In this document: in pieces, positions 12,244 through 32,763 of the stretch
Numbering within the stretch: the first letter of the stretch is position 1
Layout: every line of letters starts with the position of its first letter
Source: an uncultured Alphaproteobacteria bacterium
GTDB taxonomy: Bacteria; Pseudomonadota; Alphaproteobacteria; Acetobacterales; Acetobacteraceae
Reading direction: 5' to 3'
DNA: 64,000 nucleotides
Assembly: GCA_963749575.1 (NCBI GenBank)
Contig: CAVVNM010000014.1
Location: forward strand, 79,603 to 143,602
Position numbers and translations under genes: made by a program
The notes under the pieces: generated by a model
What the model was told of the DNA's origin: nothing
The model's input: only the letters and a program-made list of their open reading frames with translations
Databases searched by the model: none

Positions 12244-13635
12244 TCACCGTGCGTTCGTCGCCTGAGCCAGCGGATTGTCTGCCGCACCTCGCCCCCGACC
12301 CCGCGCGAACACGCCCGTCGCGAAAGTGAAAAACACGCAGGCGGTGGTCGCGATCAGCACGTTGTCGGTATAGGCGTGCACGGCGAAGCCAACGAACACC
12401 AGCCGCATGATCACCTTGTCGGTCCGACACAACCGACGCGTGTGCCCCACCACCCACAGCACGAACAGCACGATCAGCAATCCGCGGCCAAGCTGCCCGC
12501 CCTCCACTGAAATCCTCAGATATTCGTTGTGCGCCGCCCAGCTCTGAATGATCCGCGCCAGTGCGCTGTCGGGCGGGATGATCGCATTGCCCGCCCCGAC
12601 CCCCCAGCCGAACCAGGGCGCCGCCGCCGCCGCCTGCTCGAACGGCGGCCAGAGCAGGTCGCGACCGCTGAAATTGCCGGCCTCGCTGTTCAGCACGTTG
12701 AACAGCCGCACCATCGACAGCTGCGGGGCCAGCGCTGCCAGCGGCGGCAGCAGGCAGGCGGCCAGCAGCAGGGGCAGGACGCGGCGGCGCCGCGGGAACG
12801 CGTCGGAGCGGACAAAGCCGAGGGTCAGGCCGGTCACCGCGGTCGCACCGACCAGCGGCGCCCGCGCCCCGGTCAGCACCAGGATCAGGAAATTCGCCGC
12901 CAGCAGCGGCAGCCAGCGCGACCGTCCGTCGCGATAGAGCTCGATCAGGCAGGCATAGATCGCGGCGAGGCAGATGCCCGCGAGGAATGCCGGGTGACCG
13001 AGGCCGGCCAGCCGCTGGCCGCCGCTGTCGACGAACGCCGCGCGCAGGCCCAGCAGGTCGAGCACCACGCCGCCGGCCACCGAGAGCAGCGGGATCCAGG
13101 CGGTGGCGCGCACCACCGCATTGCCCCAGCCGGGCGACAGTCGGCTGAATGCGAACGCGAACGGAGCCACCGAACCCAGCAGCGAACGCAGGCTGTCGGC
13201 CGGCGTCAGGTCTGGGTGCAGTCCGTGCGCCAATCCGGCAATGAACATCGCCAGGAACGCCAGGCCGGGATTGAACACATCGGCATAGAACCCGTAGCGC
13301 ACGATGCACAGCAGTGCGAGGCCGAGTTCGCCTGCCTTCACCGCCGCTATCGTGGCCTGGTACGCGCCGGGGCCCACGATGTCGCCCAGGGTCATTTCCA
13401 AGGTCGCGCCGGCGATCAGCAGCCAGGCGACGCAGACGGCGACCAGATGACGAAATGCCAGGATGCCGGTCGCGGCGGCGGCGAATATCGCAAGCGGCAC
13501 CCAGAACCAGCTCGGCGCAAGCATCGCGGCGGCGGTGGCGGCGGCGAAGGCGCCGCCGATCGCGAGCAGCACCGGTCGGCTCCGATCAGCCTGAGCGGAC
13601 CAGGGTGTCGGCAGCGGGATCGCCATGGCCGGCAT
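12244..13635 (-). CDS. O-antigen ligase/polymerase (Wzy_C) family membrane protein
   Basis: 463 aa, polytopic. Wzy_C-like motif WAAHNEYLRISVEGGQLG. Confidence 0.7.
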   Translation of the reverse strand: MPAMAIPLPTPWSAQADRSRPVLLAIGGAFAAATAAAMLAPSWFWVPLAIFAAAATGILAFRHLVAVCVAWLLIAGATLEMTLGDIVGPGAYQATIAAVKAGELGLALLCIVRYGFYADVFNPGLAFLAMFIAGLAHGLHPDLTPADSLRSLLGSVAPFAFAFSRLSPGWGNAVVRATAWIPLLSVAGGVVLDLLGLRAAFVDSGGQRLAGLGHPAFLAGICLAAIYACLIELYRDGRSRWLPLLAANFLILVLTGARAPLVGATAVTGLTLGFVRSDAFPRRRRVLPLLLAACLLPPLAALAPQLSMVRLFNVLNSEAGNFSGRDLLWPPFEQAAAAAPWFGWGVGAGNAIIPPDSALARIIQSWAAHNEYLRISVEGGQLGRGLLIVLFVLWVVGHTRRLCRTDKVIMRLVFVGFAVHAYTDNVLIATTACVFFTFATGVFARGRGRGAADNPLAQATNAR

Positions 13636-13752
13636 GCCAGCACGAAATCCCTAAGATTCTCCCCCTCGCCGCCCCTCGCCGGGCGGACGGGGGAGTATTC
13701 TTGTCGCGCACACTTGCTCTACGCTCACCGCAACAGCCGGGGGGAACGGACG

Positions 13753-14673
13753 ATGAGCGAATTGCGGGTGGTGGCGACGGGTCTGTGTTTTCCCGAGGGG
13801 CCGGTGGCCATGGCCGACGGCTCGGTCGTCCTGGGCGAGATCGAGCGCCAGACCGTCAGCCGCGTGCTGCCGGACGGCACGGTGCAGGTGATCGCCCGCA
13901 CCGGCGGCGGTCCGAACGGCTTGGCGGTGGGGCCGGACGGTGCCTGCTACGTCTGCAACAACGGCGGCTTCGCCTGGCGGCTGGAGGAGAACCTGTTCCG
14001 CCCGGCCGCGGCGTCATCCGACTACGTCGGCGGCAGCATCCAACGGGTAGATCCGAACACCGCCGTGGTCAGCGTGCTGTACGACCGCTGCGGCGCCAAC
14101 AAGCTGAACGGGCCGAACGACATCGTGTTCGACGCCCATGGCGGCTTCTATTTCACCGACCTCGGCAAGACCCGCGCGCGTGATCGCGACAACGGCGTGA
14201 TCTACTACGCGCTGGCGGACGGCTCGAGGATCGTCGAGGTCGCGTATCCCGCGCTGACCCCGAACGGCATCGGCCTGTCGCCGGACGGCGCGGTGCTCTA
14301 CGTCGCCGAGACCGAGCCGGCGCGGCTGTGGGCGTTCGACATCGACACGCCGGGGGTGGTGAAGAAGCATGGATGGCCGTCACCGCATGGCGGCCGGCTG
14401 GTCATCGGACTGCCTGGGTTGCAGCGGTTCGACAGCCTCGCGGTGGCGGCTTCCGGCAACATCTGCGTCGCGACGCTGATCACCGGCTGCATCAGCGTGA
14501 TCGCGCCGGACGGACGGCTGGTGCGGCAGGTGGCGATGCCCGATCCGGTGACGACCAACATCTGCTTCGGCGGAGCGGACCTGCGGACCGCGTACGTCAC
14601 GCTTTCAGGCACCGGCCAGCTGGTCGCCATGGAATGGCCCGAGCCGGGGCTGCCCATGGCGTACCACACCTGA
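13753..14673 (+). CDS. SMP-30/gluconolactonase/LRE family protein
   Basis: Start at MSELRVVATGLCFPEGP (frame-checked). The long upstream extension of the ORF is antisense to the ligase gene. Motifs NGPNDIVFD and PNGIGLSPDG. Confidence 0.8.
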   Translation: MSELRVVATGLCFPEGPVAMADGSVVLGEIERQTVSRVLPDGTVQVIARTGGGPNGLAVGPDGACYVCNNGGFAWRLEENLFRPAAASSDYVGGSIQRVDPNTAVVSVLYDRCGANKLNGPNDIVFDAHGGFYFTDLGKTRARDRDNGVIYYALADGSRIVEVAYPALTPNGIGLSPDGAVLYVAETEPARLWAFDIDTPGVVKKHGWPSPHGGRLVIGLPGLQRFDSLAVAASGNICVATLITGCISVIAPDGRLVRQVAMPDPVTTNICFGGADLRTAYVTLSGTGQLVAMEWPEPGLPMAYHT

Positions 14674-23648: not shown

Positions 23649-24809
23649 ATGCGCATCCTGGTCGCGATGTCGGGCGGGGTGGACAGCAGCACCGTCGCCG
23701 GGCTGCTGCACGAGGCGGGCCACGAGGTGATCGGCGTCACGCTGCAGCTGTACGACCACGGCGCGGCGGCCGGACGGAAGGGCGCGTGTTGCGCCGGCCA
23801 GGATATCCACGATGCGCGCCGGGTGGCGGATCATCTCGGCATCCCGCACTACGTGATCGACGCCGAGACGCGGTTCGCCGATGCGGTGATCCGCGACTTC
23901 GCCGACAGCTATGCGGCCGGTGAGACGCCGGTGCCCTGCATACGCTGCAACCAGACGGTGAAGTTTGCCGACCTTGCCGCGCTGGCCCATGGCCTCGGGG
24001 CCGAACGGCTGGCGACCGGGCACTACGTGCGGCGGATCGATGGCCCGGAGGGGCCGGAACTGCACCGCGCCGCCGACCACGCGCGCGATCAGAGCTGGTT
24101 CCTGTTCGCCACCACGCGCGAGCAGCTTGCGTTCACGCTGTTTCCGCTGGGGGAGATGGTCGACAAGCGGACGGTGCGCGCCGAAGCGGAACGGCTCGGT
24201 CTGCCGGTGGCCGCCAAGCCCGACAGCCAGGACATCTGCTTCGTCATGTCGGGGCACTACGCCGACACGGTGGTACGGCTGCGGCCGGACGCCGGCGAAG
24301 CGGGCGACATTGTCGATCGGGACGGCCGGGTGCTGGGCCGGCATGACGGAATCGCGCGCTACACGGTTGGTCAAGGCAAGCGGCTGGAGGCGGCGGCGAT
24401 GGATCGCGGGACGCGCCAGACCGTGGTTGCGCTCGATCCGACGCGGCGACGGGTGATCGTGGGGCCACGCGACGCAGGCACGCGAGTGGTGCGATTGCGT
24501 GAGGTGAACTGGCTGGTGCCGCCGTCCAATGGATCGCTGGCGTGCCAGGTGAAGCTGCGCGCGAGAGAGGCGCCGCAGCCGGCGACCGTGTCACCCACTT
24601 GCGCCGAGCTGACGGCCGGGGCGGTGGTGTGGCTCGATGCGCCTGCTCTGCCGGCGCCCGGACAGGCCTGCGTGTTCTACGCTGGCTCGCGTGTGCTGGG
24701 CGGCGGCTTCATCTGCCGGACCGCGGCGGCGGCGGCAGTTGACGCGGCGGGGGACGGCAGACTATCTCCCCTGCCCTTCGGATCGGATGGCGGCGTAGCT
24801 CAGCGGTAG
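23649..24809 (+). CDS. mnmA: tRNA 2-thiouridine(34) synthase
   Basis: PP-loop VAMSGGVDSS and conserved CIRCN, RDQSWFLF motifs. The ORF tail runs 21 nt into the tRNA gene, so the true C-terminus is uncertain. Confidence 0.9.
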   Translation: MRILVAMSGGVDSSTVAGLLHEAGHEVIGVTLQLYDHGAAAGRKGACCAGQDIHDARRVADHLGIPHYVIDAETRFADAVIRDFADSYAAGETPVPCIRCNQTVKFADLAALAHGLGAERLATGHYVRRIDGPEGPELHRAADHARDQSWFLFATTREQLAFTLFPLGEMVDKRTVRAEAERLGLPVAAKPDSQDICFVMSGHYADTVVRLRPDAGEAGDIVDRDGRVLGRHDGIARYTVGQGKRLEAAAMDRGTRQTVVALDPTRRRVIVGPRDAGTRVVRLREVNWLVPPSNGSLACQVKLRAREAPQPATVSPTCAELTAGAVVWLDAPALPAPGQACVFYAGSRVLGGGFICRTAAAAAVDAAGDGRLSPLPFGSDGGVAQR

Positions 24810-24863
24810 AGCAGGGGAATCATAATCCCTTGGTCGGTGGTTCAAATCCGCCCGCCGCTACCA
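24789..24863 (+). tRNA. tRNA with CAT anticodon (elongator Met, or Ile2 if lysidine-modified), CCA encoded
   Basis: Hand-folded cloverleaf: acceptor GGCGGCG/CGCCGCT, D arm GCTC-AGCGGTA-GAGC, anticodon arm GGGGA-ATCATAA-TCCCT, T arm GGTGG-TTCAAAT-CCGCC, then A-CCA. 75 nt. Confidence 0.9.
24832..24863 (+). repeat. Direct repeat copy 1 (attL-like): 3' end of the tRNA
   Basis: ggtcggtggttcaaatccgcccgccgctacca. Recurs at 28657..28688 with 2 mismatches. Confidence 0.9.
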
Positions 24864-25064: not shown

Positions 25065-25584
25065 GTGGCGAGCATCACCATCCGCAACCTGGACGACTCG
25101 CTGAAATCCCGTCTGCGTATTCAGGCGGCGGTTCATGGCCGCTCGATGGAGGACGAGGCGCGTGACATTTTGCGCTCGTCACTCAATCAGAAGCCGCCGG
25201 AACCAAAGAACCTTGTCACGGCGATCAATGCCCTCCCTGCTGCGACCGTGTTCATTTCCGCCGTCACGCAAGCGGAAATCCTCCATGGCACTGGTGCCGG
25301 AAGGGAAGCGGCGAGAGGGGTTGGCACGGGCCGTCCGCACCGCGTTCGAGACCCACTTTCGCGGCCGTATTCTGCCCTTCGACTCGGAAGCTGCCTAGGC
25401 GTTCGTCCCCCTGGCTACCGGCCGCCGCCAGGCTGGCCGGCCGATGTCACAGGCGGACGTTCAGATTGCCGCGATCGCCCGATCCCGCGGTGCAGTCCTT
25501 GCCACCCGCAACGTGGCGGATTTTGCCGGATACGGGGGCGAGATCGCTAACCCTTGGGGTGGTTCCGCAAAGGAGCCGGCCTGA
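25065..25584 (+). pseudogene. Decayed fitAB/vapBC-type toxin-antitoxin module (RHH antitoxin fused to truncated PIN toxin)
   Basis: VASITIRNLDDSLKSRLRIQAAVHGRSMEDEARDILR is a FitA/VapB-like N-terminus. Near 25230 it jumps into the PIN middle (VFISAVTQAEILHG). There is a frame switch near 25290 and an in-frame TAG at 25396-25398. The C-terminus QADVQIAAIARSRGAVLATRNVADF is PIN-like. Confidence 0.7.
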
Positions 25585-25758: not shown

Positions 25759-28572
25759 TCAGAGGGTCTTTGTGGTGTTGTAGGCTCTGATGGCCAGTGC
25801 CTGCGCGGTAAGATCGTCAACGGTTTGGAACGCCCCCACAGCCACGCCGCCCAGCAGCAGCAGCGCGGTGGCCACTGGACCTCCGGGGCTGGCGAAGTTG
25901 CCAGGGGATTCCGCGCTGGCTATCGCGGTCGGATAAAACGATGAGAGGTCAGTAGCCGGCTGCGACGTATTCGAGCCGGCCGACTGGTATGCGCCGGCGG
26001 TCGCCTCAAGCGCCCCCAGGGATACCGGAGGTTCCACCGCCAGCGCGGTCTGCAAGGTGGGTTGGGCCGCTCCGCTCCAGCCGGTGAAGATCCCGGCCTG
26101 CTGCGCAATGCTGGCGATGTCGGCATCAGGATCGGTGGCGGCCAGCTGGGTGGCCAGGGCGTTCATCGCGTTGATCGAGCGGGTGCCGGTGACGTTCGCG
26201 GCGATCTGCACCGCCGGGCTGTCGATCTCTCGCGTCAGCGTGCCGTTCGCCAGCCGCGTGCCGGTCTGGGCAACCACGGTAAGGCTCTGCGAGCCGCCGG
26301 TGCCGGTGACGTAGGTCAGCTGCGCGAACTCATCGGCGGTGAAATCGGTCTGGCCGGTGACATTGTTGCCGGCCAGCCAGAGCTGCCCGCCGGTGCCGCC
26401 GCCATCGCCCAGCGCCACGCGATATCCGGCGATCGTCTGTCCGGCTGCTGCGCCGGCCTTGAACAGACCGACCATCCGGTAGCTGTCGCCAGCCTGGGCG
26501 GTGAAGTTGCCCGCGGTCTGCAAGGTGGGTTGGGCCGCTCCGCTCCAGCCGGTGAAGATCCCGGCCTGCTGCGCAATGCTGGCGATGTCGGCATCGGGAT
26601 CGGTGGCGGCCAGCTGGGTGGCCAGGGCGTTCATCGCGTTGATCGAGCGAGTGCCGGTGACGTTCGCGGCGATCTGCACCGCCGGGCTGTCGATCTCCCG
26701 CGTCAGCGTGCCGTTCGCCAGTCGCGTGCCGGTCTGGGCAACCACGGTAAGGCTCTGCGAGCCAGCGGTGCCGGCGACATAGGTCAGCTGCGCGAACTCA
26801 TCGGCGGTGAAATCGGTCTGGCCGGTGACATTGTTGCCGGCCAGCCAGAGCTGGCCGCCGGTGCCGCCGCCATCGCCCAGCGCCACGCGATATCCGGCGA
26901 TCGTCTGTCCGGATGCTGCGCCGGCCTTGAACAGACCGACCATCCGGTAGCTGTCGCCAGCCTGGGCGGTGAAGTTGCCGTCGGTCTGCAAGGTGGGTTG
27001 GGCCGCTCCGCTCCAGCCGGTGAAGATCCCGGCCTGCTGCGCAATGCTGGCGATGTCGGCATCAGGATCGGTGGCGGCCAGCTGGGTGGCCAGGGCGTTC
27101 ATCGCGTTGATCGAGCGAGTGCCGGTGACGTTCGCGGCGATCTGCACCGCCGGGCTGTCGATCTCTCGCGTCAGCGTGCCGTTCGCCAGCCGCGTGCCGG
27201 TCTGGGCAACCACGGTAAGGCTCTGCGAGCCGCCGGTGCCGGTGACGTAGGTCAGCTGCGCGAACTCGTCGGCGGTGAAATCGGTCTGGCCGGTGACATT
27301 GTTGCCGGCCAGCCAGAGCTGCCCGCCGGTGCCGCCGCCATCGCCCAGCGCCACGCGATATCCGGCGATCGTCTGTCCGGATGCTGCGCCGGCCTTGAAC
27401 AGACCGACCATCCGGTAGCTGTCGCCAGCCTGGGCGGTGAAGTTGCCGTCGGTCTGCAAGGTGGGTTGGGCCGCTCCGCTCCAGCCGGTGAAGATCCCGG
27501 CCTGCTGCGCAATGCTGGCGATGTCGGCATCAGGATCGGTGGCGGCCAGCTGGGTCGCCAGGGCGTTCATCGCGTTGATCGAGCGAGTGCCGGTGACGTT
27601 CGCGGCGATCTGCACCGCCGGGCTGTCGATCTCTCGCGTCAGCGTGCCGTTCGCCAGCCGCGTGCCGGTCTGGGCAACCACGGTAAGGCTCTGCGAGCCG
27701 CCGGTGCCGGTGACGTAGGTCAGCTGCGCGAACTCGTCGGCGGTGAAATCGGTCTGGCCGGTGACATTGTTGCCGGCCAGCCAGAGCTGCCCGCCGGTGC
27801 CGCCGCCATCGCCCAGCGCCACGCGATATCCGGCGATCGTCTGTCCGGCTGCTGCGCCGGCCTTGAACAGACCGACCATCCGGTAGCTGTCGCCAGCCTG
27901 GGCGGTGAAGTTGCCCGCGGTCTGCAAGGTGGGTTGGGCCGCTCCGCTCCAGCCGGTGAAGATCCCGGCCTGCTGCGCAATGCTGGCGATGTCGGCATCG
28001 GGATCGGTGGCGGCCAGCTGGGTCGCCAGGGCGTTCATCGCGTTGATCGAGCGGGTGCCGGTGACGTTCGCGGCGATCTGCACCGCCGGGCTGTCGATCT
28101 CCCGCGTCAGCGTGCCGTTCGCCAGCCGCGTGCCGGTCTGGGCAACCACGGTAAGGCTCTGCGAGCCAGCGGTGCCGGTGACGTAGGTCAGCTGCGCGAA
28201 CTCATCGGCAGTGAAATCGGTCTGGCCGGTGACATTGTTGCCGGCCAGCCAGAGCTGCCCGCCGGTGCCGCCGCCATCGCCCAGCGCCACGCGATATCCG
28301 GCGATCGTCTGTCCGGATGCTGCGCCGGCCTTGAACAGACCGACCATCCGGTAGCTGTCGCCAGCCTGGGCGGTGAAGTTGCCAGCTACGAGTGCATTGC
28401 TGATGCTGATTACGTCAACCGGCGCTGAGCTCGAGGCAGGAGTGGTTGATGTCGCAACTGCGGACGCGGGCGTGGTGCTCGAAACCGACGCGTCCTGCGT
28501 AGCGGGGTTGTCCGTTGTGAAACTGTAGCCGGCTGGCAGCTGCAACGAGAATGGAAGGATGCTCAAACTCAT
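25759..28572 (-). CDS. Repeat protein of unknown function: 64-aa S/T/P-rich N-terminus, 5 x 156-aa near-identical units, 93-aa tail with one hydrophobic segment
   Basis: Start chosen at MSLSILPF (ATG 28572); an alternative ATG is at 28635. Third codon positions are almost uniformly G/C on this strand. The opposite-strand 788-aa ORF is Arg/Gly-rich shadow. Confidence 0.75.
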   Translation of the reverse strand: MSLSILPFSLQLPAGYSFTTDNPATQDASVSSTTPASAVATSTTPASSSAPVDVISISNALVAGNFTAQAGDSYRMVGLFKAGAASGQTIAGYRVALGDGGGTGGQLWLAGNNVTGQTDFTADEFAQLTYVTGTAGSQSLTVVAQTGTRLANGTLTREIDSPAVQIAANVTGTRSINAMNALATQLAATDPDADIASIAQQAGIFTGWSGAAQPTLQTAGNFTAQAGDSYRMVGLFKAGAAAGQTIAGYRVALGDGGGTGGQLWLAGNNVTGQTDFTADEFAQLTYVTGTGGSQSLTVVAQTGTRLANGTLTREIDSPAVQIAANVTGTRSINAMNALATQLAATDPDADIASIAQQAGIFTGWSGAAQPTLQTDGNFTAQAGDSYRMVGLFKAGAASGQTIAGYRVALGDGGGTGGQLWLAGNNVTGQTDFTADEFAQLTYVTGTGGSQSLTVVAQTGTRLANGTLTREIDSPAVQIAANVTGTRSINAMNALATQLAATDPDADIASIAQQAGIFTGWSGAAQPTLQTDGNFTAQAGDSYRMVGLFKAGAASGQTIAGYRVALGDGGGTGGQLWLAGNNVTGQTDFTADEFAQLTYVAGTAGSQSLTVVAQTGTRLANGTLTREIDSPAVQIAANVTGTRSINAMNALATQLAATDPDADIASIAQQAGIFTGWSGAAQPTLQTAGNFTAQAGDSYRMVGLFKAGAAAGQTIAGYRVALGDGGGTGGQLWLAGNNVTGQTDFTADEFAQLTYVTGTGGSQSLTVVAQTGTRLANGTLTREIDSPAVQIAANVTGTRSINAMNALATQLAATDPDADIASIAQQAGIFTGWSGAAQPTLQTALAVEPPVSLGALEATAGAYQSAGSNTSQPATDLSSFYPTAIASAESPGNFASPGGPVATALLLLGGVAVGAFQTVDDLTAQALAIRAYNTTKTL
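26041..28386. repeat. Tandem array, 5 x 468 bp, nearly identical units, in frame with the CDS
   Basis: The landmark ggtctgcaaggtgggttgggcc occurs at 26047, 26515, 26983, 27451 and 27919 (period 468). Shadow ORFs also recur with the same period. Confidence 0.95.
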
Positions 28573-28656: not shown

Positions 28657-28688
28657 GGTCGGTGGTTCAGATCCGCCCGCCGCCACCA
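28657..28688 (+). repeat. Direct repeat copy 2 (attR-like): partial tRNA 3' end
   Basis: ggtcggtggttcagatccgcccgccgccacca: 30/32 identical to 24832..24863, same orientation. Overlaps the last codons of the LysR gene. Confidence 0.9.
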
Positions 28689-29608
28689 TCCGATGCGGTG
28701 GTCCATGGCGCGGCACCCATGGTGAAGCGTCGCGCCAGGAAATCCAGCAGTACGGCAACGCGGGTTGGCCTTGGTCCGCCGGCCGGGGTGATCAGATGCA
28801 AAGCCAGCGCCGGCGCCGACCAGTCGTTCAGCACGATCTCGAGCCGCCCCGCTCGCACCGCGTCCCAGACGACAAAGTCCGGCTGCAGCGCCACCCCGCA
28901 GCCAGCCTCCGCTGCGAAGCCCAATGCCTCGGCGTTGGTCGCGCTGAGCGGCCCCTTCACGATCACCATCTCCTCGGTGCCGTTGGCATCGGTGAACCGC
29001 CAGGTCTCGCCGGTCGCGAGATACAGATAGCCGAGACACGCGTGATGCCGCAGATCGCGCGGATGGCTGGGCCGGCCGTGCCGGGCGAAATAGTCGGGCG
29101 CGCCGACCACCCAGCGGCGCACCGGGCATAGCCGGCGGGCGATCAGGCTGGAATCTGCCAGATCGGCGATGCGGACCGCGACATCGATGCCGCCGGCGAT
29201 CAGATCGACAACCCTGTCATCGAGCTGGAGATCGACCGAGACCTCGGGATAGGCCGCCAGGAACTCCGGCAGCGCCGGCGCAACATGCCGCAGGCCGAAC
29301 GACATCGGCGCGGCCAGCCGCACGCGGCCACGCGGCACCGCCGAGCTGGCGTGCGCCTCGGCCTCGGCCGCCTCGCCTTCGGCCAGGATGCGTGCCGCGC
29401 GCACCGCGAGCACCCGCCCGGCCTCGGTCAGCGCGAAACGGCGCGAGGTCCGGTGAATCAGCTTCTCCCCCAGCCGTGCCTCGAGCCGCTGTATGGCCTT
29501 CGACACAGTCGGACCGGACAGGCGCAGCTCCGCGGCGGCAGCGGCAAACGAGCCGGTCTCGGCCACCTTGGCAAAGACCGCCCAGGCTTCCAGGTCGGGC
29601 AGGCTCAT
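28667..29608 (-). CDS. LysR-family transcriptional regulator
   Basis: 313 aa. N-terminal wHTH LEAWAVFAKVAETGSFAAAAAELRLSGPTVSKAIQRLE. Divergent from the pirin genes. Confidence 0.9.
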   Translation of the reverse strand: MSLPDLEAWAVFAKVAETGSFAAAAAELRLSGPTVSKAIQRLEARLGEKLIHRTSRRFALTEAGRVLAVRAARILAEGEAAEAEAHASSAVPRGRVRLAAPMSFGLRHVAPALPEFLAAYPEVSVDLQLDDRVVDLIAGGIDVAVRIADLADSSLIARRLCPVRRWVVGAPDYFARHGRPSHPRDLRHHACLGYLYLATGETWRFTDANGTEEMVIVKGPLSATNAEALGFAAEAGCGVALQPDFVVWDAVRAGRLEIVLNDWSAPALALHLITPAGGPRPTRVAVLLDFLARRFTMGAAPWTTASDGGGGRI

Positions 29609-29624
29609 TCCGATGCCCCCAAAT

Positions 29625-29652
29625 CAGAAACGATGTCTTTCCATCCTTTCTG
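29625..29652. promoter_or_regulatory. Candidate LysR-type operator dyad in the LysR/pirin divergent promoter region
   Basis: cagaaa-N16-tttctg inverted repeat, 17 nt upstream of the LysR start. Spacing is longer than the classic T-N11-A, so this is tentative. Confidence 0.2.
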
Positions 29653-29708
29653 TTTTGCACGCCAGCGTCGAGCACCATGTTTCGCCCCGACTGAACAGGA
29701 GCACTGGC

Positions 29709-30407
29709 ATGATCGAACGCAGGAAGTTCGCCGAGCTGGGTGGCGCGAACCACGGCTGGCTGAACGCGAAGCACCATTTCTCGTTTGCCAACTACTACGA
29801 TCCCGCGCGCATGAACTGGGGCGCGCTGCGGGTATGGAACGACGACGAGATCGCCGCGAACTCGGGGTTCCCGCCGCATCCGCACGCCGACATGGAGATC
29901 ATCACCTATGTGCGCGAGGGCGCCATCACCCATAAGGACTCGATGGGCAATACCGGCCGCACCGAGGCGGGCGACGTACAGGTGATGTCGGCCGGCTCCG
30001 GTGTGCGTCATTCCGAGTACAACCTGGAAGACGCGACGACGCGGATCTTCCAGATCTGGATCGAGCCGACCGAGCGCGGCGGCAAGCCGTCCTGGGGTGC
30101 GAAGCCGTTTCCCAAGGCCGACCGCTCCGGCCACTTCGTGACGCTGGCGAGCGGCATCGCCGGTGACGCAGCGGCATTGCCGATCCGCGCCGATGCGCGC
30201 GTGATGGGTGCCACGGTGAAGGCGGGCGAGCGCATCAGCGTGCCGCTGGATCCCACCCGGCATGTCTATCTGGTGCCTGCCACCGGCGCGGTGGAGGTTG
30301 GCGGTGTGCGTATCGACGCGCGTGACGGCGCTGCCATCACCGATGTCGAGAGCATCGACATCGTCGGCCTGCAGGATGCCGAGGTGGTGTTGGTGGACGC
30401 GGCGTAG
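29709..30407 (+). CDS. Pirin family protein (single bicupin, YhhW-like)
   Basis: Start MIERRKF (frame-checked). Cupin metal motif FPPHPHADMEIITYV. Confidence 0.85.
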   Translation: MIERRKFAELGGANHGWLNAKHHFSFANYYDPARMNWGALRVWNDDEIAANSGFPPHPHADMEIITYVREGAITHKDSMGNTGRTEAGDVQVMSAGSGVRHSEYNLEDATTRIFQIWIEPTERGGKPSWGAKPFPKADRSGHFVTLASGIAGDAAALPIRADARVMGATVKAGERISVPLDPTRHVYLVPATGAVEVGGVRIDARDGAAITDVESIDIVGLQDAEVVLVDAA

Positions 30408-30422
30408 CCGAAGGAGACGGAG

Positions 30423-31307
30423 ATGCTGGATCTGGTGATCGAGGGCCGACGCAGAGATCTCGGCGGGGGGCTCGAGGTCGGGCGCGTGCTGCCGTTCGCC
30501 CGCCGGCGCATGGTCGGGCCGTTCATCTTTCTCGATCACATGGGTCCGGCGGATTTCCGATCTGGCGAGGGGATCGATGTGCGGCCGCATCCGCACATCG
30601 GCCTCGCCACCGTCACCTATCTGTTCGACGGCGAAATCCATCACCGCGACAGCCTTGGTGTCAGCCGGAAGATCCGGCCCGGCGAGGTAAACTGGATGAC
30701 TGCCGGTGCAGGCATCGTACATTCCGAGCGCACCGATCCTGCGTGGCGATCGAACGGCGGCCTGATGCACGGCATGCAGGCCTGGGTGGCGCTGCCGCGG
30801 GAGGATGAGGAGATCGCGCCGGCGTTTGCGCACCACGACGCGGACCAATTGCCGGAGACATCGGACCACGGTGTCTGGGCGCGGCTGATCGCCGGCTCCG
30901 CCTACGGGTTGAGCAACGACGTGAAGACGTTTTCGCCGCTGTTCTATCTGCACGTCGAGCTTGCCGACGGTGCGAGGATCGCGATGCCGGTCGAGCACAC
31001 GGAGCGCGCCGCGTATGTGGTGTCCGGGGCAGTGGAGCACGATGGCGCGCGGTATCCGGCCGGACGGCTGCTGGTGTTCGCGAACGGCGGCGAACCGGCG
31101 ATCGTGGCCGCGGGCGCACCGGCGCGCGTGATGCTGCTCGGCGGGGCGAGCATCGGTCCGCGGTTCATCTGGTGGAACCTCGTGTCGTCGCGACCGGAGC
31201 GGATCGAGCAGGCGAAAGCCGACTGGAAGTCCGGCCGGATGAAGTTGCCGCCGGATGACAGCAGCGAGTTCATCCCGCTGCCGGAGGAGGGGCCGGCTGC
31301 GGTCTGA
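30423..31307 (+). CDS. Pirin family protein (with C-terminal pirin domain)
   Basis: 294 aa. FIFLDHMGP and RPHPHIGLATVTYLF motifs. Confidence 0.85.
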   Translation: MLDLVIEGRRRDLGGGLEVGRVLPFARRRMVGPFIFLDHMGPADFRSGEGIDVRPHPHIGLATVTYLFDGEIHHRDSLGVSRKIRPGEVNWMTAGAGIVHSERTDPAWRSNGGLMHGMQAWVALPREDEEIAPAFAHHDADQLPETSDHGVWARLIAGSAYGLSNDVKTFSPLFYLHVELADGARIAMPVEHTERAAYVVSGAVEHDGARYPAGRLLVFANGGEPAIVAAGAPARVMLLGGASIGPRFIWWNLVSSRPERIEQAKADWKSGRMKLPPDDSSEFIPLPEEGPAAV

Positions 31308-31548
31308 TCGAGGATACAGCCGAGCCCTGCGCCATCGGGCCTCGCCGGGATGCAGCCACGGCAGGCGTGGTTCAGGAAATATCTGCCGCGTCGGTGCAAG
31401 CCGGGTGCACGCCGGGCACGTGGCCACTCCAGACGAACGAATCGAGCAGTGGTACGGCTGATTGCGCGACGAATGGACGGTGGCGGGCGAGGCCGTGTCA
31501 GTCCAGTACCACTGCCGTTGTCGTGTCAGTGGGAAGGAACGTCCAACC

Positions 31549-32763
31549 GTGACGATCGATGGAGGTGCGGAGTCCGCCTATGCCTGGCTTCGCCTTGCGA
31601 TCGGCGTGGCGCTCAGCACCCTCGGCGGTATCAGCCTGTGGTCCGTAGTGGTCGTGCTGCCCGCGGTGCAGGCGGAATTCGGCGTCGACCGTGCCACCGC
31701 CTCGTTGCCCTATACGCTGACGATGCTCGGCTTCGCGGTCGGCGGCGTGGCGATGGGACGCATGGCGGATCGCTTCGGCATCATGCTGCCGGCGCTGATC
31801 GGTGGTGTGGCGCTCAGCCTGGGCTACATCGCCGCAGCCAATGCCACCAGTCTGTGGCAATTCGCGCTGGCGCACGGGCTGCTGATCGCGCTACTCGGCG
31901 GATCTGCATCGTTCGGGCCGATCGTTGCCGACGTGTCCCACTGGTTCACCCGCCGACGCGGCACCGCGGTGGCGGTCGCTGCGGCGGGGAACTATGTCGC
32001 CGGCACGATCTGGCCGCCACTGGTACAGCACTTCGTGCAGACGGTGGGATGGCGGCAGACGCATCTCGGCATCGGGGTCATCGCCGCGGTGACAATGATC
32101 CCGCTTGCGTTGGCGCTGCGCCGCAAGGCACCGGCGCAGCAGCACAGCGCGACGCATGGCATTGCGTCGTCGCAGGCTTCACTCGGCATGTCACCGACTG
32201 CACTGCAGATCGTGCTGGCGATCGCAGGCTTCTGCTGCTGCGTCGCAATGTCGATGCCGCAGGTGCACATCGTCGCCTATTGCGGCGATCTCGGCTACGG
32301 CGTCACGCGCGGCGCGGAGATGCTGTCGGTGATGCTCGGCTTTGGCATCATCAGCCGCGTCGGCACCGGCTTTATCGCTGACCGGATCGGCGGACTGCCA
32401 ACTCTGCTGCTGGGCTCGATCGGGCAGATGCTGGCACTTCTGCTGTATCTCGGCTTCAACGGGCTTCCATCGCTCTACGTGATTTCCGCGCTGTTCGGCC
32501 TGGTGCAGGGCGGCATCGTGCCGAGCTATGCTATCGTGATCCGCGAATACCTGCCGGCGCGAGAGGCCGGGATGCGGTTCGGCGTGGTGATCATGGCGAC
32601 GCTGTTCGGCATGGCGTTCGGCGGTTGGGTCTCCGGCGTAATCTTCGATGTCACCGGATCCTACAGCGCCGCGTTTGCCAACGGCGCGTTGTGGAACCTG
32701 CTCAACGCCGGCATTGCCCTGACGCTGCTGACCCGTGGCGTTCGACGCGTGGCGCCAGCCTGA
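31549..32763 (+). CDS. MFS transporter
   Basis: GTG start 10 nt after ggaagga. 12-TM-type sequence with the MFS loop motif GRMADRFG. The start is uncertain (ORF is open from 31462). Confidence 0.75.
   Translation: MTIDGGAESAYAWLRLAIGVALSTLGGISLWSVVVVLPAVQAEFGVDRATASLPYTLTMLGFAVGGVAMGRMADRFGIMLPALIGGVALSLGYIAAANATSLWQFALAHGLLIALLGGSASFGPIVADVSHWFTRRRGTAVAVAAAGNYVAGTIWPPLVQHFVQTVGWRQTHLGIGVIAAVTMIPLALALRRKAPAQQHSATHGIASSQASLGMSPTALQIVLAIAGFCCCVAMSMPQVHIVAYCGDLGYGVTRGAEMLSVMLGFGIISRVGTGFIADRIGGLPTLLLGSIGQMLALLLYLGFNGLPSLYVISALFGLVQGGIVPSYAIVIREYLPAREAGMRFGVVIMATLFGMAFGGWVSGVIFDVTGSYSAAFANGALWNLLNAGIALTLLTRGVRRVAPA

Follow-up and report, generated by a model that had tools for sequence, protein, structure and literature searches.

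A taxonomically narrow family of acidic proteins in Acetobacteraceae with five tandem units of predicted Ig-like fold and signs of concerted evolution

Tandem Ig-like or cadherin-like arrays in bacteria are overwhelmingly extracellular. The Rap (Ra/CHDL) proteins of Rhizobium leguminosarum, including RapA2 and RapD, bear tandem cadherin-like domains of ~110 aa, are exported by the type I system PrsDE, whose genes are located at another place in the genome, and exert their action on the polysaccharide matrix outside the cell (PMC9298526, PMC5061743). The repeats of the Periscope Proteins (SasG, Rib, Sgo_0707 SHIRT and CdrA) vary greatly in copy number between close strains and are accompanied by a signal peptide, a ligand-binding head and an anchor in the wall or outer membrane (PMC8201768). 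SbsB from the Gram-positive Geobacillus stearothermophilus (PDB 4aq1) consists of consecutive Ig-like domains that are not repeated units, and it carries an SLH anchor. Giant repeat adhesins contain Cadherin_4 (PF17803), Big_9 (PF17963) or He_PIG (PF05345) modules. The protein described here, encoded in a 64-kb stretch of DNA (the window), is likened by description to the Rap proteins, which serve as a working analogy for its mechanism: both are alphaproteobacterial and tandem cadherin-like. However, Rap proteins have one to few Ra domains and lack the helices and terminal motifs of the family reported below.

The gene is located on the minus strand (25759..28572) and is complete, with 937 codons and a TGA stop, as supported by the ORF list, GC3, dN/dS and 106 homologues. 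Its frame stays open 5' of the ATG up to a TTG at 28758 in the ORF list. The ATG at 28572 was favoured as the start because the N-termini of 92 homologues align with the ATG-proximal MSLSILPF. The GC content at codon positions 1, 2 and 3 is 0.63, 0.57 and 0.84 on the minus strand, and the GC3 value favours this strand as the coding one, in agreement with the first-pass annotation. A 788-aa ORF on the plus strand (26062-28428) was discarded as a shadow of the repeat array. Against a 78%-identical orthologue (locus L001), dN/dS was 0.30 for the whole gene and 0.18 for the C-terminal tail, its most constrained part. Judged by these coding signatures, the 937-codon ORF is a real gene under selection. 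A promoter and terminator scan around it gave nothing useful, and an exact look-up of the 937-aa product retrieved no identical protein on record.

The predicted protein is rich in Ala, Gly and Thr, has a pI of 4.18 and contains 48 Asp residues, with neither Cys nor His. Similarly, 82 of 87 family members are devoid of Cys, with a median pI of 4.45 across the family. Gram-negative proteins that act outside the cell typically have such an acidic, Cys-free composition. On inspection, the sequence showed no Sec or Tat signal, LPXTG or PEP-CTERM motif, and the GGxGxDxUx nonapeptide repeats of RTX adhesins and type I substrates are absent (with Pfam, the complete protein gave no HemolysinCabind match at E<=10); on both points the first reading of the sequence was borne out. 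The protein also had no match to a type I target-domain in NCBIfam and no head, ligand-binding or anchor domain in the Pfam scan, while SLH, LPS-anchoring and RTX regions were found in neither the Pfam nor the NCBIfam scans.

The three-part architecture that had been proposed, namely a Ser/Thr/Pro/Ala-rich N-terminus (aa 1-63), five units and a 94-aa tail, proved correct, and all parts are given here in minus-strand coordinates. The family shares this layout: a short conserved N-terminal motif, a disordered Ser/Thr/Pro/Ala linker, five units of 150-170 aa and a constrained C-tail of ~94 aa. In the window protein, the motif at the extreme N-terminus (aa 5-16, ILPFSLQLPAGY, 28525..28560) is conserved in the alignment of 92 N-termini, with the family consensus PFxxQLPxGY (LPFxxQLPxGY) and a pLDDT of ~50. 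It is followed by a low-complexity Ser/Thr/Pro/Ala linker (aa 17-52, 28417..28524), predicted to be disordered (pLDDT 29-32) and variable in length and sequence among homologues. The lead-in segment (aa 53-63, VDVISISNALVA, 28384..28416), conserved in the N-terminal alignment with the consensus PxDxVxI, runs into the first beta-strand of unit 1 (model strand E60-68). Units 1 to 5, placed from the Tandem Repeats Finder array, cover aa 64-219 (27916..28383), aa 220-375 (27448..27915), aa 376-531 (26980..27447), aa 532-687 (26512..26979) and aa 688-843 (26044..26511), respectively.

The family-specific 94-aa C-terminal tail (aa 844-937, 25762..26043), supported by homologue alignment and dN/dS, bears a GA[FY]Q[ST]xG-like motif twice and has QxxAIxAY as its terminal motif; its pLDDT is 67-86, falling below 50 over the last 16 aa. 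A profile search of the tail against 5.8 billion proteins recovered only three family fragments and no other architecture, and NCBIfam, Pfam and profile searches gave no match to a known secretion-signal family. When the N- and C-terminal motifs were sought as regular expressions over 466 kb of sequence, they were met only in the family's own genes. The single hydrophobic stretch noticed earlier in the tail, PVATALLLLGGVAVGAF, is present in this protein, but the corresponding positions in homologues are occupied by D, E, S or Q. Since its hydrophobicity is not conserved, it was rejected as a membrane anchor, and no conserved transmembrane segment was found in the family.

Tandem Repeats Finder returned one array (26044-28383, period 468, 5.0 copies, 98% matches, 0% indels, score 4505), confirming the five near-identical, head-to-tail units of 156 aa seen at first pass. 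Pairwise differences between units amount to 2-13 nt and 1-4 aa. Fifteen nucleotide sites vary across the five units (9 synonymous, 6 non-synonymous) and divide them into the incompatible partitions {2,5}, {2,3}, {2,3,5}, {1,5} and {1,2}.

The homologues (n=106 at E<=1e-47) include genome matches in the Acetobacteraceae isolates Plastoroseomonas hellenica, Siccirubricoccus phaeus, Roseomonas harenae and Roseicella aquatilis, in Acetobacteraceae MAGs and in several MAGs labelled only Alphaproteobacteria. By sequence similarity, they form an unnamed, taxonomically narrow family, recorded to date from no group other than Acetobacteraceae (Roseomonas-like isolates and MAGs). The UniRef label DUF3739 carried by P0061 was not reproduced by the Pfam scan. 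A tblastn search of the window protein against a plasmid collection gave no match, and the literature yielded nothing on the family's locus tags or on a Roseomonas secretome.

Searching for the unit and its copy number in relatives, as had been advised, gave five unit matches in 87 of 107 sequences. Among the 87 proteins complete at both termini, 71 have five units, three have five plus four beta-only modules, and 13 have one to four. Five full units are thus present in 74/87 complete members, in a comparison that is between species and covers between-protein identities down to ~36%. In the two- and three-unit members, the units are 0.89-0.98 identical; because of this near-identity, these members may be collapsed short-read assemblies, a criterion that does not apply to the six one-unit proteins. 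The four-unit P0099, with units ~72% identical, looks genuine.

Inside one protein, unit-to-unit identity ranges from 0.51 to 0.99, while between proteins it is 0.547 at the same position and 0.536 at different positions; in 119 of 275 cases, a unit was most closely related to another unit of its own protein. Units are thus closer within a protein than across proteins, whatever their position, which points to concerted evolution on an old five-unit scaffold. Within the limits of sequence comparison, these data show that the number of five is ancestral and apparently selectively maintained, and that the 98% identity of the units reflects concerted evolution by recurrent intragenic gene conversion or unequal recombination. 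The first-pass annotation had taken the near-identity as a sign of recent expansion. That view has to be abandoned, because the five-unit layout predominates across deep divergence; the near-identity represents homogenisation.

Scans with the whole protein matched DUF7196, DUF2155, DUF7443, TraM, an F420 oxidoreductase family and phrog_32075. These Pfam and NCBIfam matches were rejected because they are sums of five sub-threshold matches, and all six vanished in the single-unit scan. The single unit had no Pfam, NCBIfam or PHROG family match, and the well-characterised domain family for which the first reading had left room was therefore not found in Pfam or NCBIfam. Cadherin_4, Big_9 and He_PIG were not matched by the single unit or by 17 diverse units, even at E<=1, and single-unit and profile searches of PDB sequences met only TCR V-alpha chains (E>=0.03). 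However, the unit profile matched 434 representatives, and proteins of 1000-2700 aa contain 4-16 repeats of the part that matches its positions ~2-85. Of five large multi-repeat matches that were scanned, four meet Cadherin_4, two also Big_9, one He_PIG and one the RTX HemolysinCabind model. The profile reached P0139, P0143, P0153 and P0128 at E 1e-40 to 1e-59, and all four meet the Cadherin_4 threshold. Pfam matches overlap the residues aligned with the unit profile in P0139, P0143 and P0153; in P0139, the unit is found at 2218-2331, Cadherin_4 at 2203-2261 and Big_9 at 2209-2277. The beta-module is therefore a remote relative of the bacterial cadherin-like and Ig-like modules Cadherin_4, Big_9 and He_PIG. 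The earlier statement that no family could be recognised holds in that the unit has no curated family or solved structure, but not for the beta-module, given this remote kinship.

The full-length AlphaFold2 model (pLDDT 87.6, pTM 0.84) exceeds pLDDT 90 over the strand blocks. Each modelled unit opens with a block rich in strands, continues with helices and closes with a terminal strand, from which only ~2 residues lead to the first strand of the following unit. The unit is thus predicted to be an Ig-like beta-sandwich of ~105 aa with two helices after it and then a terminal strand that leads straight into the next unit. By inference, the protein may be rod-like. With the full model, Foldseek retrieved multi-Ig proteins, namely the SbsB S-layer protein (E 1.7e-9), GhpA base, N-cadherin and fibronectin. 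The dystroglycan Ig-like domain was also among the Foldseek matches. Structure prediction, which had been recommended, thus gave a confident Ig-like fold, but the single-unit model gave only generic Ig-like matches (E>=0.02, TM<=0.34). In that model, built from 17 sequences, the helical part is weak (pLDDT 29-56); it was not interpreted because the alignment was much shallower than in the full-length job. The window unit shares its predicted fold with the Cadherin_4, Big_9 and He_PIG adhesin modules, and its profile matches their repeated modules; unlike them, it carries an extra two-helix segment of ~50 aa, and its own sequence reaches none of the Pfam models. The protein also differs from giant repeat adhesins in being short, with exactly five units and terminal modules of its own.

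The only tRNA that ARAGORN found in the window is a tRNA-Met (24789-24863), so the tRNA islet at whose edge the gene had been placed does not exist. The distance from the gene is ~900 bp to this tRNA-Met and ~200 bp to the decayed remnant of a FitA/PIN toxin-antitoxin system. Genes for type I secretion were found neither in the window nor beside the family gene in 24 related loci. In those loci, the neighbours encode M20 peptidase, MFS transporters, histidinol dehydrogenase, polysaccharide deacetylase and SbcCD-like proteins; no conserved partner gene was found among them, and synteny at clade level involves housekeeping genes only. This context is not decisive for type I export, because Rap genes are also dispersed.

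Taken together, these features are best explained by a family of proteins with five Ig-like units under concerted evolution, exported independently of Sec to the surface or the matrix, a reading put forward with about even confidence. The surface-exposed or secreted protein proposed at first pass remains plausible. The protein would leave the cytoplasm without Sec or Tat, most likely through a type I secretion system encoded elsewhere and recognising the conserved C-tail. Outside the cell, it could form a surface or matrix component of fixed length, perhaps stabilised by calcium, that acts as a spacer or as a glycan or adhesion scaffold in the manner of the tandem cadherin-like Rhizobium Rap lectins. 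A strongly conserved extreme N-terminus is atypical of type I substrates, and its presence here hints at another export route or at a partner.

The protein could instead remain inside or associated with the cell as a scaffold, its N-terminal motif docking to a partner and its Ig-like units serving as an intracellular spacer. This would fit the lack of a Sec or Tat signal on inspection, the lack of secretion genes near any locus examined, and the succession of a conserved 12-aa motif and a disordered linker, which resembles targeting peptides in general. It is nevertheless unlikely in view of the acidic, Cys-free composition, of the extracellular location usual for such arrays, and of the giant adhesin-like proteins, including one with RTX repeats, to which the beta-module is related. 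An S-layer or paracrystalline array, in which the five units would make a flat or ring-like self-assembling tile on the outer membrane, is quite improbable. A lattice unit would be compatible with a fixed domain number, only one PDB match of the full model ranked above SbsB, the pTM is high for a chain of 937 aa, and the composition is suitable; but TM-scores to SbsB are only 0.08-0.14 at 8% identity, the scans revealed no SLH, LPS-anchoring or RTX region, and a literature search gave no S-layer report for the carrier genera. Phage origin, as an Ig-like decoration or fibre protein on an island beside the tRNA-Met, can be given very little credit. The tRNA and the toxin-antitoxin remnant are close, the neighbourhood differs from that of the closest orthologue, and BFVD matches to phage Ig/FN3 array proteins go down to E 2e-18; however, TM-scores for these are <=0.13, reflecting generic Ig arrays, the scanned stretches around the gene contain no phage genes, the single unit matches no PHROG family, and the gene GC (~0.68) is like that of the window (0.667).

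Two further readings concern the number of units. As in Periscope Proteins, a variable-length stalk would let near-identical repeats change in number between strains and so alter how far the protein projects, with five as a recent state, in line with the first-pass view. The two systems share tandem folded domains from highly identical DNA repeats, intragenic recombination and, likely, a rod-like array. The 98% identity of the five 468-nt units is a hallmark favouring intragenic recombination in those proteins (PMC8201768), and 13/87 complete members do have one to four units. Such variability is doubtful here: the count is largely fixed at five in the between-species comparison, shorter members may be collapsed assemblies, and the Roseicella aquatilis assembly is fragmented at the family gene (223- and 473-bp contigs). 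Furthermore, the window protein begins with a 12-aa motif and a disordered linker and shows no signal peptide or LPXTG on inspection and no head, ligand-binding or anchor domain in Pfam. An array mis-built from fewer or more copies is hardly credible. Near-identical 468-nt repeats are difficult to assemble, and related assemblies break at the family gene, but the 15 distinguishing sites, the consistent frame and the lack of indels speak against it; five units also occur in relatives whose repeats have diverged, where the count is safe because diverged repeats assemble safely.

The preferred reading, a Sec-independently exported protein with five homogenised units, concerns an uncharacterised family restricted to Roseomonas-like Acetobacteraceae, whose unit lies outside Pfam, NCBIfam and PDB. 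Should it be merely another cadherin-like matrix protein, the value of the finding would be modest and mainly annotational. If export is true, the conserved N-terminal motif and the C-tail become candidate sorting signals. A bolder proposal, which we regard as a long shot worth stating, is a five-module device whose fixed length or closed five-fold arrangement (spacer, ruler or ring) is the selected property; it would be exported or docked through LPFxxQLPxGY and the GAFQ...AIxAY tail as a previously unrecognised signal pair, its count being actively preserved despite homogenisation. If the fixed-length reading holds, the family combines concerted evolution with a constant number of units and so inverts the Periscope principle of variable length. 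Bacterial surface proteins with highly identical repeats usually also vary in repeat number. This family offers a clear natural example of tandem domains repeatedly homogenised at the DNA level with a count of mostly five, in which the identity of the repeats is uncoupled from variability in their number, and this suggests selection on length or stoichiometry.

The repeat gene is a minus-strand ORF of 937 aa (25759-28572). Tandem Repeats Finder reported a single array (26044-28383; period 468 nt, 5.0 copies, 98% matches, no indels) which corresponds exactly to aa 64-843, i.e. five 156-aa units. The five-unit repeat ORF described in the first-pass annotation is confirmed. The units differ from one another by 2-13 nt and 1-4 aa. 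GC contents of 0.63/0.57/0.84 at the three codon positions identify the minus strand as the coding one, so that a 788-aa ORF on the plus strand (26062-28428), five-fold repetitive in its own right, is best explained as a shadow of GC-rich repeated DNA. The frame is open upstream as far as a TTG at 28758; nevertheless, the N-termini of 92 homologues fall no more than a few residues from MSLSILPF, which favours the ATG at 28572 as the likely start.

Among 5.8 billion proteins searched, 106 homologues with 35-78% identity were found, nearly all annotated as "hypothetical protein". According to the named sources and a genome scan, the family lies within the Acetobacteraceae. It is carried by isolates of Plastoroseomonas (Roseomonas) hellenica, Siccirubricoccus phaeus, Roseomonas harenae, R. 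nepalensis, R. populi, Pararoseomonas and Roseicella aquatilis, and by many soil MAGs, some of which are labelled Alphaproteobacteria only. In a comparison with the orthologue at locus L001 (78% identical), dN/dS was 0.30 for the whole gene and 0.18 for the C-terminal tail (aa 844-937, 25762-26043), which marks the gene as real and under constraint.

At the extreme N-terminus a motif with the consensus PFxxQLPxGY is conserved; a variable S/T/P/A linker separates it from a lead-in, PxDxVxI, that is conserved as well. The C-terminal tail has QxxAIxAY at its end and two GA[FY]Q[ST]xG-like motifs before it. In the tail alignment, L...GA[FY]Q[ST]xG occurs twice, about 50 residues apart, as in an apparent internal duplication, and an invariant A..Y follows the second copy near the end. 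The hydrophobic stretch previously noted in the tail is excluded as a transmembrane anchor, because many homologues have charged or polar residues there. The tail profile found no other protein architecture, and neither terminal motif was found in other genes within the 466 kb of sequence scanned.

Whole-protein matches in Pfam, NCBIfam and PHROG were rejected as artefacts in which five weak matches are added together, since separate scans of the N-terminus, the tail and one unit gave nothing meaningful in these databases. No family was matched consistently by 17 diverse units scanned one by one, and no solved structure was related by sequence. A profile built from 17 units and searched against 1.84 billion representatives (E<=1e-3) matched 434 proteins. 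Outside the five-unit family, unit positions ~2-85, the beta-module, are repeated 4-16 times in proteins of 1000-2700 aa. In a Pfam scan of five such proteins, four matched Cadherin_4, two also Big_9 and one He_PIG, and the Pfam match overlapped the unit-profile residues in three. One of the five carries RTX repeats and a toxin domain. These matches make the beta-module a divergent member of the bacterial cadherin-like/Ig-like superfamily, with remote cadherin-like ancestry, and the repeat protein belongs among tandem Ig-like/cadherin-like repeat proteins. The terminal modules and the composite unit of 156 aa, helices included, are family-specific.

The interpretation in the first-pass annotation was supported in part. 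Its "tRNA islet" is not confirmed, as ARAGORN detects a lone tRNA, tRNA-Met (24789-24863), across the entire window. On the lower-coordinate side of the repeat gene lie genes for an Rrf2-family regulator, a class-V aminotransferase, a ferredoxin, MnmA and this tRNA-Met, followed by a decayed toxin-antitoxin module (25065-25560, plus strand). In the latter, a PIN-domain remnant is joined to a FitA-like ribbon-helix-helix antitoxin that looks intact (Pfam E 1e-19); the remnant has lost its first ~30 profile positions and contains a frameshift near 25291 and an in-frame TAG. The other side (28667-32763) has a LysR gene in the same orientation as the repeat gene, 95 nt upstream of its start; two pirin paralogues and an MFS transporter lie beyond it on the opposite strand. 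This arrangement is absent from other family loci, and a regulatory link to the repeat gene is thus unproven. No window neighbour of the repeat gene is common to other loci; across the 24 loci compared, conservation of neighbours is limited to close clades and involves housekeeping genes. On the contig of the closest orthologue (L001 1-6745), genes for a CHAT-domain protein and for a TPS-domain (two-partner-secretion, haemagglutinin-like) protein of very large size lie about 3-10 kb upstream of that orthologue; the window has neither. Elsewhere in the window, a minus-strand Wzy_C O-antigen-ligase-like ORF (12244-13635) overlaps a plus-strand ORF of 714 aa (12529-14673), the pair spanning 12244-14673; the SMP-30/gluconolactonase domain of the latter starts only at residue 421, and its start is probably over-extended.

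The full-length AlphaFold2 model, computed from a full-length alignment, has a mean pLDDT of 87.6 and a pTM of 0.84, with residues 1-55 and the last 16 disordered. Each unit is predicted to adopt an Ig-like fold, with a strand-rich block of ~105 residues, two helices and a final strand. The gap between this strand and the first one of the following unit is only about two residues, suggesting that the units are stiffly connected. The protein is acidic (pI 4.18) and has neither Cys nor His. It would be exported without Sec or Tat and may act outside the cell as a surface or matrix protein of fixed length. None of the 20 window ORFs that were scanned was recognised as a secretion-system gene. A non-exported scaffold and an S-layer subunit are less likely alternatives. 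The Foldseek matches in the PDB are chains of Ig-like domains that include the SbsB S-layer protein together with the GhpA base, N-cadherin, fibronectin and alpha-2-macroglobulins, with E-values as low as 1e-9 to 1e-12 but TM <=0.15; a single-unit model gave generic Ig-like matches only (E>=0.02). BFVD matches are generic phage Ig/FN3 arrays, and a phage origin of the gene is unlikely.

Five unit matches were found in 87 of 107 sequences, all cut with the unit HMM. Among the 87 proteins bearing both the N-terminal motif and the C-terminal tail, 71 have five units, 13 have one to four, and three (P0003, P0004 and P0005; 1315-1373 aa) have five full units and, as an insertion between units 3 and 4, four beta-only modules that lack the helical segment; the beta-sandwich is thereby shown to be separable as a module. 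A stalk of truly variable length is a less likely reading. Several short forms may be collapsed assemblies, because units in 2- and 3-unit proteins are 0.89-0.98 identical and the short-read assembly of Roseicella aquatilis NE82 is broken exactly at this gene (contigs of 473, 18009 and 223 bp; L023-L025). The two tiny contigs consist of unit sequence and nothing else. The fragmentation shows directly that, for this family, short-read assemblies give unreliable copy numbers; at least one 4-unit protein, with units ~72% identical, looks genuine. That the five-copy array is itself an assembly artefact is unlikely, five units being the prevailing number in relatives.

Unit identity within one protein ranges from 0.51 to 0.99, and between proteins it is 0.547 at the same position versus 0.536 at different positions. 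Of 275 units, 119 have their nearest relative within their own protein. Moreover, the 15 variable sites of the window array group the five units in mutually incompatible ways, as expected of gene-conversion tracts. Taken together, copy counts and identity patterns show that the five-unit scaffold is old, that its units evolve in concert and that their near-identity reflects homogenisation, which leaves the recent expansion proposed earlier unsupported. In contrast to Periscope Proteins (PMC8201768), this family combines high repeat identity with a largely fixed repeat number, and this contrast is its most interesting aspect.
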